From Escherichia coli (lineage in GTDB: Bacteria > Pseudomonadota > Gammaproteobacteria > Enterobacterales > Enterobacteriaceae), in assembly GCF_003334385.1 (NCBI RefSeq), contig NZ_QOWN01000061.1: a DNA stretch of 19,408 bases; one strand, written 5' to 3'. Positions 16,058-18,708 of this stretch are shown here, in pieces. The notes beneath the pieces are model-generated. The model made no database searches and was not told the DNA's origin. It saw only the letters and a list, made by a program, of their open reading frames with translations. Position numbers and translations under genes: made by a program. Within the stretch, counting starts at the first letter, position 1; each line of letters opens with the position of its first letter.

Positions 16058-17296
16058 ATGGCTGACACTCGCCCTGAACGTCGCTTTACGCGCATTGATC
16101 GTCTCCCGCCCTACGTTTTTAACATCACCGCTGAACTGAAAATGGCTGCGCGTCGGCGCGGCGAAGATATTATCGATTTCAGCATGGGTAACCCGGACGG
16201 TGCGACTCCGCCGCATATCGTCGAAAAATTATGTACTGTGGCCCAGCGCCCGGACACGCATGGTTACTCCACTTCACGCGGCATTCCGCGGTTACGTCGC
16301 GCCATTTCCCGCTGGTATCAGGATCGCTACGACGTTGAAATCGACCCGGAATCAGAAGCCATCGTCACTATTGGTTCGAAAGAGGGCCTGGCGCATCTGA
16401 TGCTGGCGACGCTGGATCATGGTGACACGGTGCTGGTGCCGAATCCAAGTTACCCGATCCATATTTATGGCGCGGTGATTGCCGGGGCGCAGGTACGCTC
16501 AGTGCCGCTGGTGGAAGGTGTCGATTTCTTCAACGAACTGGAGCGAGCCATTCGTGAAAGTTATCCGAAACCGAAGATGATGATCCTCGGCTTCCCGTCA
16601 AACCCAACCGCGCAATGCGTGGAACTGGAGTTCTTCGAAAAAGTAGTGGCGCTGGCGAAACGCTACGATGTGCTGGTGGTCCATGACCTGGCCTATGCCG
16701 ATATCGTCTACGATGGCTGGAAAGCGCCGTCAATTATGCAGGTACCGGGTGCACGCGATGTGGCAGTCGAGTTCTTTACGCTGTCGAAAAGCTACAACAT
16801 GGCGGGCTGGCGTATCGGCTTTATGGTTGGCAACAAAACGCTGGTCAGCGCCCTGGCTCGTATTAAAAGCTATCACGATTACGGCACCTTTACGCCGTTG
16901 CAGGTGGCGGCGATTGCGGCGCTGGAGGGCGATCAACAGTGCGTGCGCGACATTGCCGAACAGTACAAACGCCGCCGTGATGTATTGGTTAAAGGGCTGC
17001 ATGAAGCGGGCTGGATGGTTGAAATGCCGAAGGCTTCGATGTATGTCTGGGCGAAAATCCCGGAACCATATGCGGCCATGGGATCGCTGGAATTTGCCAA
17101 GAAGCTCCTTAACGAAGCGAAGGTTTGTGTCTCGCCGGGGATTGGCTTTGGCGACTATGGTGATACGCATGTTCGCTTTGCACTGATTGAAAACCGCGAC
17201 CGTATTCGTCAGGCCATCAGAGGGATTAAAGCGATGTTCCGTGCCGACGGTTTACTACCCGCCAGCAGCAAACATATTCACGAAAACGCGGAATAA
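16058..17296 (+). CDS. alaC: Glutamate-pyruvate aminotransferase AlaC (class I PLP-dependent aminotransferase), 412 aa
   Basis: PLP-lysine region [12 protein letters not shown] and aminotransferase class I fold motifs. Full-length ORF with a GAGG ribosome-binding site. Confidence 0.95.
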
Positions 17297-17315
17297 ACAC
17301 CGTCGTCAGAAATGC

Positions 17316-17346
17316 AAACAGGAGCCTGATGGCTCCTGTTTTTCAT
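17316..17346. terminator. Intrinsic terminator, probably bidirectional for alaC (+) and ypdK (-)
   Basis: Perfect 8-bp GC-rich stem CAGGAGCC-tgat-GGCTCCTG followed by TTTTTCA on the plus strand, with AAA on the 5' side providing a T-run for the minus strand. Confidence 0.75.
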
Positions 17347-17360
17347 TGCACAGTTTGCTT

Positions 17361-17432
17361 TTAGATCATCAGGGCAAAAGTACCGGCCCAAACGATGACC
17401 ATAAAAGAAATGCCCATAAAGAAATATTTCAC
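17361..17432 (-). CDS. ypdK: 23-aa hydrophobic micro-protein YpdK (MKYFFMGISFMVIVWAGTFALMI), GTG start
   Basis: Hand-translated from the minus strand: GTG at 17432-17430, stop TAA at 17363-17361, GGAG about 9 nt upstream. It is below the ORF-track length cutoff. The sequence matches my recollection of K-12 YpdK. Confidence 0.6.
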   Translation of the reverse strand: MKYFFMGISFMVIVWAGTFALMI

Positions 17433-17705
17433 TTTACATCTCTCCGCGTAATTACTGTTACGCCTGAATGACTTCATTACACCTGATACAGTGAGTTGAC
17501 ACCGGGCAAAGCGACCTTAAAAGCCCTGTATTTTACCGTGGGCATCACCCCAGAATTCTGAGCTAAACTGCTCGAGACGGCGCTAATGTACGCCTAAAAC
17601 TGAAACGAGACAAGAGGCATTTTCTTATTTACTTTTAGTAACTTACAAGTGTCTCATATCGGCGACAGTTTAATTTCTGACGGTAATAATTAGATATTCA
17701 GCGAA

Positions 17706-17754
17706 GGAAAAAACCTTAAGAAAAAAGCCATAAAAACCATGAGGTTATTATGGC
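17706..17754 (-). terminator. Probable intrinsic terminator of lpxP
   Basis: A 12-bp stem with one mismatch (GCCATAAAAACC-atga-GGTTATTATGGC, 17727-17754) about 35 nt after the lpxP stop, followed on the minus strand by TTTTTTCTTAAGGTTTTTTCC. Confidence 0.55.
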
Positions 17755-17787
17755 CGATTTGAGGAGGGAAAGAGTAAGAGCAGTTTG

Positions 17788-18708
17788 TTAAATGTACAAC
17801 GACGATTCTCCCACCGGGCGCGTTTTAAAGCGACGGTGGATCCAGAGGTACTGCTCCGGTGCGCGCATGATCTCTTTCTCGATAATCTTGTTCATATAGG
17901 CAGCGGCTTGATTTTCATCTGTCGGGTAGCCTTCCATCTCTGGGGTGATGAACAAACGATATCCGCTGTAATCCGCTTTTCTTACCATCGTTACGGTCAA
18001 CATGGCTGCGCCAGAGAGACGGGAGAGAACATAGGTGCCATTGGTTGTGGCGACATTTTCCACCGCAAAGAACGGCGCGAAGGAGCTGCCTTTACGACCA
18101 TAATCCTGATCGGGAGCAAACCATACCGCTTCACCTTTCTTCAGTGCACCGACAATGCCGCGCAGATTATTTCTGCCGATCATCGCTTTGTTAGAGCGCA
18201 TGCGCCCACGGGTCTGCACCCATTCCATCAGCTGATTATTATGTGGACGATAGGTAGCCATCATTGGTTGGCACAGTCCCATCACGCGGCCGCCCAGTTC
18301 CAGCGACATAAAATGGACGCCGACAACCATTACGCCGCGATTTTGCATTTGTGCGCGTTTAAGGTTATCCAACCCTTCAACATCAAACCATTTACGTACG
18401 CGACTGTCGGGCCAGAACCATGCCATGCCGGTTTCTACCAGCGCCATGCCGAGTGAACGAAAGTTTTCGGCAATCATCTTCTCGCGTTCTTCCGCAGAAT
18501 GCTGCGGGAAACAAAGTTCCAGGTTTTTACGGGCGATAGATTCACGACGTTTCAGGAATGGTCGCGCCATTGCGCCAATACGCGTGCCGAGAAAGCAGAG
18601 AACAGGATAAGGAAGCTGTACCCAAAGCCAGAGTACACCAAGCCCAAACCATGTGAGCCAGTAGCGAGGATGTAGAAACTCGCGGGAAAATTTGCATTGT
18701 GGAAACAT
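17788..18708 (-). CDS. lpxP: Lipid A biosynthesis palmitoleoyl-ACP acyltransferase LpxP (cold-induced LpxL paralogue), 306 aa
   Basis: LpxL/LpxM/LpxP acyltransferase family. The ORF-track start at 18774 is trimmed to the ATG at 18708 (MFPQCKFSREF...), preceded by AAGG, giving the expected 306 aa. Calling it lpxP rather than lpxL rests on synteny with alaC and yfdY. Confidence 0.88.
   Translation of the reverse strand: MFPQCKFSREFLHPRYWLTWFGLGVLWLWVQLPYPVLCFLGTRIGAMARPFLKRRESIARKNLELCFPQHSAEEREKMIAENFRSLGMALVETGMAWFWPDSRVRKWFDVEGLDNLKRAQMQNRGVMVVGVHFMSLELGGRVMGLCQPMMATYRPHNNQLMEWVQTRGRMRSNKAMIGRNNLRGIVGALKKGEAVWFAPDQDYGRKGSSFAPFFAVENVATTNGTYVLSRLSGAAMLTVTMVRKADYSGYRLFITPEMEGYPTDENQAAAYMNKIIEKEIMRAPEQYLWIHRRFKTRPVGESSLYI

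Follow-up and report, generated by a model that had tools for sequence, protein, structure and literature searches.

ypdK of Escherichia coli, a conserved small-protein gene with a predicted promoter and structured leader of its own

Between alaC and lpxP, a 19,408-nucleotide stretch of Escherichia coli DNA (the window, meaning the whole stretch that was analysed) carries ypdK, a known gene that most likely forms its own transcription unit, is weakly translated and may encode an accessory helix of the inner membrane. We place the probability of this explanation as a whole at roughly 80%. A sigma-70-type promoter belonging to ypdK would give rise to an mRNA with a structured leader of ~148 nt, and transcription would end at a terminator hairpin held in common with the convergent alaC gene. 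Translation appears to be kept deliberately weak, in that the start codon is GTG and never ATG in 75 species, the Shine-Dalgarno (SD) element is predicted to be paired and the translation efficiency (TE) is low. The product would cross the inner membrane once with its N-terminus inside, and it may be an accessory helix of low copy number that attaches to a larger protein or complex of that membrane and tunes it. By analogy with known microproteins, we rate this mode of action at slightly less than even odds.

The feature is ypdK (b4680), a gene whose annotation and experimental support date from 2008, and is not new. Modest novelty lies in a GUG start that is invariant, in the self-contained predicted promoter with its covarying leader, and in the linkage to alaC.

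The ypdK reading frame and its conservation

The earlier note on this DNA had described a minus-strand ORF with a GGAG element, a 9-nt spacer, a GTG start, 22 sense codons and TAA, and had named it ypdK. The sequence of the window agrees with this description exactly, and both the RefSeq coordinates and the NCBIfam model NF033437 bear out the name. The elements are:

17361 to 17432, minus strand: ypdK coding sequence, GTG plus 22 sense codons and TAA, encoding MKYFFMGISFMVIVWAGTFALMI
17442 to 17445, minus strand: SD element GGAG, 9 nt upstream of the GTG, invariant in Enterobacteriaceae alignments

On the minus strand the GTG occupies 17432-17430 and the TAA 17363-17361, the spacer between SD and GTG is AGATGTAAA (17441-17433, 9 nt), and the translation reads (M)KYFFMGISFMVIVWAGTFALMI. 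A RefSeq CDS for ypdK, ‘membrane protein YpdK’ (WP_010723117.1; one record), maps exactly onto 17361-17432, and the window's copy shows no difference from this reference sequence of the NF033437 family. The NF033437 equivalog model is matched with 57.5 bits against a cutoff of 30 (E 9.4e-16), residues 1-23 aligning with positions 1-23 of 23. A search of Pfam returned no family match for YpdK, and no chain in the PDB is YpdK.

Of 5426 complete E. coli genomes, 5423 match a 651-nt query across the site, and the records listed annotate alaC, ypdK and lpxP. With a 96-nt query comprising the ORF and the SD element, at least 99% identity was found in 4741 records. The earlier description of a ‘hidden’ micro-ORF must therefore be set aside, as RefSeq annotates ypdK in essentially every complete E. 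coli genome and an NCBIfam model exists. The ORF listing gave the ypdK frame as a 38-aa ORF that begins at an upstream in-frame ATG at 17477. This longer form matches NF033437 through its last 22 residues only, and its start was rejected because the in-frame ATG is present in E. coli only and the family model has 23 positions.

Published data also include the gene. In an acid-stress Ribo-seq study, b4680 is located at NC_000913.3:2496921-2496992 (+) with a GTG start and is classed as a ‘Previously known sORF’ (PMC10746267). Retapamulin mapping of start sites had been proposed as a check on the ORF, and ypdK is indeed listed as Ribo-RET-detected: Table S1 of the PIRT-Seq study places it in the column ‘Ribo-ret only’, which denotes detection in the retapamulin initiation-site dataset and not by proteomics or transposon reporter (PMC12350097). 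A UV tiling-array article counts ypdK as one of 18 ORFs from Hemm et al. 2008 and describes a putative single transmembrane peptide (PMC3009722). A Klebsiella deep-learning paper that names YpdK holds no functional information about it. Our full-text literature search on ypdK found no functional study, in line with the earlier statement that no function was known. The evidence of Hemm and colleagues in 2008 is said to have been chromosomal epitope tagging. Most of the checks that the earlier note put forward have therefore already been carried out in published work.

The size of the ypdK ORF alone does not stand above chance, because 62 ORFs of at least 20 aa occur in the surrounding 3.9 kb; judged from the orthologues, it is conservation that raises it above chance. 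For comparison we used 80 species loci across Enterobacterales, anchored on AlaC. A YpdK-like ORF convergent with alaC is present in 75 of the 80, the exceptions being one contig end and four loci in which a sensitive motif search gave no match. The strict motif [KR]Y..MG.S.....[WFY].GTF produced 76 matches in six-frame translations of 81 loci, which equals the number of ypdK copies there. Every one of the 75 orthologues has a GTG start, 23-24 codons and a GGAG or GGAG-like element 6-9 nt upstream.

The substitution pattern is that of a coding sequence. Among 69 distinct nucleotide sequences, entropy at codon positions 1, 2 and 3 is 0.58, 0.19 and 1.13, and mean pS and mean pN are 0.61 and 0.17 (pN/pS 0.28). 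Residues K2 (or R), Y3, M6, G7, S9, W15 (or F), G17, T18, F19 and M22 (or L) are invariant or nearly so, with no variation at all at Y3, M6, G7, S9, G17, T18 and F19, and at the invariant G7, S9, G17 and T18 the wobble entropies reach 1.4-1.8. By these measures YpdK is a protein under purifying selection.

An out-of-frame start codon also lies 7 nt upstream of the GTG, ATG in Enterobacteriaceae and TTG in Erwiniaceae and Serratia (window 17434-17439, minus strand; loci L002-L081). In E. coli this ATG forms an ATG-TAA start-stop pair. The overlapping frame that begins here was rejected as a selected ORF because its pN exceeds its pS.

The single hydrophobic helix predicted in the earlier note is consistent with the composition of the peptide. 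Residues 3-23 have a mean Kyte-Doolittle value of 1.99 and include no charged residue, and this stretch attains the ~18-21-residue span needed for bilayer crossing. YpdK would thus insert as a single-pass inner-membrane helix, and its N-terminus is probably inside because residue 2 is a conserved Lys or Arg (positive-inside rule). In the 24-residue forms, the additional residue at the C-terminus is E, K or A. Conserved residues cluster at both ends of the helix. The possibility of one conserved helical face was rejected (moment 0.07, permutation p 0.74), and because the conserved residues do not fall on one face, no clear single packing interface emerges.

Promoter, terminators and neighbouring genes

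The elements that bound the proposed transcription unit, together with the convergent gene, are:

17585 to 17613, minus strand: inferred ypdK promoter, with -35 TTGTCT (17613-17608), a 17-nt spacer, -10 TACATT (17590-17585) and a G+C-rich AGCGCC discriminator
17650 to 17667, minus strand: invariant palindrome TGTC-N10-GACA, its centre ~80 nt upstream of the predicted start, with invariant arms and a variable spacer
17311 to 17345, either strand: hairpin terminator between ypdK and alaC, stem AAACAGGAGCC / GGCUCCUGUUU
16058 to 17296, plus strand: alaC (alanine transaminase), convergent with ypdK and persistently linked to it
17720 to 17755, minus strand: lpxP intrinsic terminator, a hairpin (17755-17726) followed by a U-run

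A block from about -245 to -85 upstream of ypdK shows 70-88% conservation between genera with differing upstream genes. In the upstream alignment, 14 genera share GGCGTACATTAG and CTTG without change. At 67 distinct loci, those of Pantoea, Mixta and Serratia among them, the -10 motif recurs at a distance of 76-199 nt upstream of the GTG, and from this conserved element transcription is predicted to start at ~17578. The promoter agrees with the sigma-70 consensus at 8 of 12 positions, a score below the scan threshold, which is why it is absent from the simple scan. A UV tiling array reported a transcript at 2494795-2494997, with ypdK at 2494943-2495014 (PMC3009722). Within the limited resolution of the array, the 5′ end of this transcript falls 148 nt upstream of the GTG, at ~17580 in the window. 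That ypdK is a monocistronic unit of ~270 nt with its own predicted sigma-70-type promoter is well supported, by inference and by one published transcript boundary.

The TGTC-N10-GACA palindrome, found in Enterobacteriaceae only, is a candidate regulator-binding site; an A/T-rich tract lies between it and the -35 region in the upstream alignment. It matches neither the YpdB nor the LexA motif. Near ypdK we found neither a LexA box to explain UV induction nor the YpdB direct repeat GGCATTTCAT-N11-GGCATTTCAT. Regulation by YpdB was rejected because this direct repeat is missing and half-sites occur at chance level (21 found versus 26.6 expected).

Convergent pairing of alaC and ypdK within 150 nt is retained at 71 of 75 loci, and in most of the 75 the two stop codons lie 36-88 nt apart. 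The intervening hairpin has an 11-bp stem and a predicted energy of -22.7 to -24.2 kcal/mol (z -3.1 to -3.5). A hairpin recurs at all 71 short-gap loci with a median of -20 kcal/mol, commonly in the form AAAAACAGGAGCC...GGCUCCUGUUUUU and often with A-tract and U-tract flanks. Where the earlier note spoke of a strong terminator serving both genes, the hairpin structure holds, and at the level of structure it is predicted to be a bidirectional intrinsic terminator; the strength does not hold equally in both directions, as UUUUU comes after the hairpin on the alaC side and UUUGCAUUU, which looks weaker, on the ypdK side. The simple terminator scan did not call this hairpin. The sole Rfam match to the region at E ≤ 1, to the psbJ plastid 3′ UTR (17316-17410, minus strand), covers the terminator hairpin and was rejected as spurious (23.5 bits versus a gathering threshold of 65.6, E 0.24). 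Also rejected was a role for ypdK as a leader peptide or upstream ORF attenuator, because the hairpin terminator follows within 20-50 nt and convergent alaC comes after it.

The region of the lpxP terminator has a predicted energy of -18.5 kcal/mol (z -3.6), and its hairpin, GGCCAUAA...UUAUGGCU, lies 33-68 nt past the lpxP stop codon. Judged from this structure, the terminator separates lpxP from the ypdK promoter.

Several loci are unusual in their neighbourhoods. In E. coli NCTC9040 an IS1A element has inserted between alaC and ypdK (L082:523-1220), leaving ypdK intact and breaking an otherwise very stable junction. A record titled Pseudomonas resinovorans DSM 21078 (L079) encodes an AlaC that is 91% identical to that of E. 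coli, unexpectedly high for Pseudomonas, and has no ypdK or ypdA nearby. In the Erwiniaceae loci (L057-L075; Pantoea, Mixta and Erwinia), genes for a DHA2-type MFS protein and an EmrA/EmrK-family adaptor lie directly upstream of ypdK on the same strand, at ~100-210 nt and 1130-1280 nt. We rejected the idea of an efflux partner (MFS or EmrAB-like) conserved across these genera, because the MFS neighbours of ypdK in Buttiauxella and Cedecea share only 26% identity with those of Erwiniaceae and are not orthologous to them, and the Pantoea and Buttiauxella proteins match different models.

Leader structure and translation

The leader and its helices are:

17433 to 17580, minus strand: ypdK 5′ leader of ~148 nt (inferred 5′ UTR), defined by the conserved -10 element and the array 5′ end
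17557 to 17577, minus strand: helix P0, a hairpin at the transcript 5′ end, with 81% of cells paired and 3 of 6 pairs changed on both sides
17493 to 17551, minus strand: helix P1, a long-range pairing of GGGGUGAUGCC (17551-17541) with GGUGUCAACUC (17503-17493)
17446 to 17463, minus strand: helix P2, a hairpin GCGUAA...UUACGC abutting the SD element, with 92% of cells paired and 4 of 6 pairs changed on both sides

Across 37 Enterobacteriaceae sequences, 90.4% of cells in this structure are paired, compared with 37-49% when the partners are slid. Covariation is 0.24 versus at most 0.095 for slid partners, none of 500 shuffles reaches the observed score, and 15 pairs are changed on both sides, counts made on the same alignment from which the structure was derived. 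P0 is also part of the minimum-free-energy fold of the E. coli leader. P1 is 92% paired and 5 of its 11 pairs are changed on both sides (for example pair 48/97: AU 14, UG 12, UA 7); the insert that it encloses is variable. Erwiniaceae and Serratia retain the promoter, a long leader and an SD-abutting hairpin, but with different sequences. A search of Rfam found no family match to the leader.

The leader is polymorphic in length. It is 33 nt shorter in the E. coli species-representative strain (L002:5354-5497 versus window 17412-17588; also L010 and L011), and Pseudocitrobacter is without the segment enclosed by P1. The enclosed insert is probably dispensable, because it is missing from both. 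A small ORF in the leader (17477-17548, GTG start, 23 aa) was rejected as a conserved gene, since this segment is variable or deleted in other genera. The 5′ arm of P1 (17541-17551, minus strand) contains a near-perfect extended SD-like sequence, GAGGUGAUG in most genera and GGGGUGAUG in E. coli. This site is sequestered by the helix and is followed by no conserved start codon.

Ribosome profiling, another check that had been proposed, does reveal ribosomes on ypdK: footprints range from 1.6 to 14 rpkm against RNA at ~17-144 rpkm, among the values listed (PMC10746267). From the same source, average TE is 0.23 at pH 7.6, 0.035 at pH 5.8 and 0.146 at pH 4.4, within an overall range of 0.03-0.37 that is noisy for a 72-nt ORF. 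At pH 5.8 the ypdK RNA rises ~3-fold (log2FC 1.55, padj 0.003) but footprints do not (-0.27; PMC10746267 Tables S3 and S8). After UV, the transcript is reported to go up (+1.06; PMC3009722 supplementary file 3).

In predicted folds, the SD region GGAGAGAUGU is base-paired to the U-rich codons 3-6 (AUAUUUCUUU) in E. coli and to AUUUC in Salmonella. The low measured TE would fit a GTG start combined with an SD element paired to early codons. The second codon is a conserved AAA, and this feature, along with a GTG that is never replaced, would be in keeping with selection on the rate of initiation.

It is conceivable that the ~148-nt leader (P0, P1 hiding GAGGUGAUG, and P2), the GUG start and the TGTC-N10-GACA palindrome together make up a conserved and previously undescribed cis-regulatory system, with the leader as its RNA part, in which some signal controls how much of the microprotein is made. 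We regard this proposal as speculative and give it only a minor chance.

Possible roles of the peptide

AcrZ, MgtS, CydX, KdpF and MgrB are E. coli microproteins that sit in the inner membrane as a single helix and have accessory or regulatory roles there. Like the members of the pairs AcrZ-AcrB, MgtS-MgtA, CydX-CydAB, KdpF-KdpABC and MgrB-PhoQ, YpdK falls in the range of ~20-50 aa, consists of a single hydrophobic helix, and is chromosomally encoded and conserved in enterobacteria. It also shares with this class the small residues Gly, Ser and Thr, which are suited to helix packing. Unlike these microproteins, with which it has no sequence similarity, YpdK comes from a monocistronic gene convergent with a gene for a soluble enzyme, and the residues conserved in it do not share a helical face. 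No partner emerged from co-encoding, as the upstream neighbours vary, or from the chains in the PDB, and neither LpxP nor YpdA is indicated in this role. This weakens an assignment of YpdK to the class but not the use of the class as an analogy.

The earlier note had implied a tie to the cold-inducible lpxP, in which the two genes would share a transcript or their regulation, with YpdK modulating LpxP in the membrane. LpxP is an inner-membrane protein, as YpdK is predicted to be, and in E. coli lpxP does lie upstream of ypdK on the same strand, as the earlier note had it (stop at 17788, 355 nt away). The two genes are also adjacent in Salmonella and Enterobacter, and are separated by one intervening gene in some Citrobacter. 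However, lpxP is next to ypdK at only 17 of 75 loci (Escherichia, Citrobacter, Salmonella and Enterobacter), and elsewhere the upstream gene varies. Moreover, lpxP is followed by a hairpin and U-run terminator, a conserved predicted promoter precedes ypdK itself, and the transcript reported from the array begins 148 nt upstream of the GTG rather than at lpxP, which makes a functional or regulatory coupling of the two highly improbable. The stability of the alaC junction draws attention to the other side of the gene, where YpdK might serve the pyruvate and alanine genes by modulating the YpdA kinase, as MgrB does PhoQ, or by assisting an AlaC-linked transporter. There are well-established cases of kinases modulated by small membrane proteins, ypdA flanks alaC at 62 of 75 ypdK loci, and the four loci without ypdK are all without ypdA as well. 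Yet AlaC is a soluble enzyme, 13 loci keep ypdK with no ypdA nearby, and the direct repeat recognized by YpdB is absent from the vicinity of ypdK. In addition, YpdA/YpdB are absent altogether from Salmonella (PMC5552118), where YpdK is identical to the window's copy; a dependence of YpdK on YpdA was rejected on this ground. The linkage to alaC may be neutral, because convergent genes with a common terminator of ~50 nt are hard to separate by rearrangement, and we consider a role in the YpdA/alaC pathway unlikely.

The size and hydrophobicity of YpdK would equally suit a membrane-damaging peptide that is silenced by its leader and weak initiation and released under UV or acid stress. TisB, DinQ, Ibs, ShoB, Ldr and Hok are type I toxin peptides, and TisB and DinQ are SOS-induced. 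With these toxins YpdK has in common a small hydrophobic product, a long structured leader, an occluded ribosome-binding site (the SD is predicted to be paired), low basal translation as reflected in TE, and, as for some of them, stress induction of the mRNA, the ypdK transcript being elevated after UV (+1.06) and at pH 5.8. The multi-copy, patchy or mobile distribution of type I toxins is not what we found: ypdK occupies a median of one place per genome among complete E. coli genomes, is deeply conserved at one fixed chromosomal locus in three families of Enterobacterales, does not lie on mobile elements, and has no match in the phage collection. The plasmid collection includes 14 records with ypdK, mostly megabase-sized or non-mobilizable, and the gene is absent from true plasmids. 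(Several of these records, H22-H24 and H27, are 4.8-5.4 Mb in length, which suggests chromosomes filed as plasmids.) Strong purifying selection on specific residues and the lack of a LexA box near ypdK also set it apart from the toxins. The scans revealed no cognate antisense RNA, with no Rfam antitoxin RNA and no promoter-like site antisense to the mRNA, an unannotated sRNA being outside the reach of the promoter scan. A toxin-like function is therefore improbable. If instead the transcript acted mainly as an RNA-level regulator or dual-function RNA, with a peptide that is secondary or dispensable, one could account for a leader and promoter nearly as conserved as the ORF, for the covarying helices and sequestered SD-like GAGGUGAUG, and for RNA abundance far above ribosome occupancy. 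Set against this idea, which we judge quite improbable, is the unmistakable protein-coding substitution pattern over ~75 species, which argues that the peptide is selected. Between Enterobacteriaceae and Erwiniaceae/Serratia the peptide motif is retained, yet leader sequence and structure change; some E. coli and Pseudocitrobacter have a deletion in the leader, and Rfam holds no matching family.

We thus favour an autonomous, weakly translated ypdK whose product may serve as an accessory helix in the inner membrane. This reading directs follow-up away from LpxP and towards a self-contained conserved unit with low and possibly regulated translation, whose linkage to alaC is very stable and unexplained. 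The invariant residues, the invariant GUG start and the covarying leader offer handles for functional study. Should the leader indeed gate translation, ypdK would be a regulated membrane effector and not a constitutive minor peptide.
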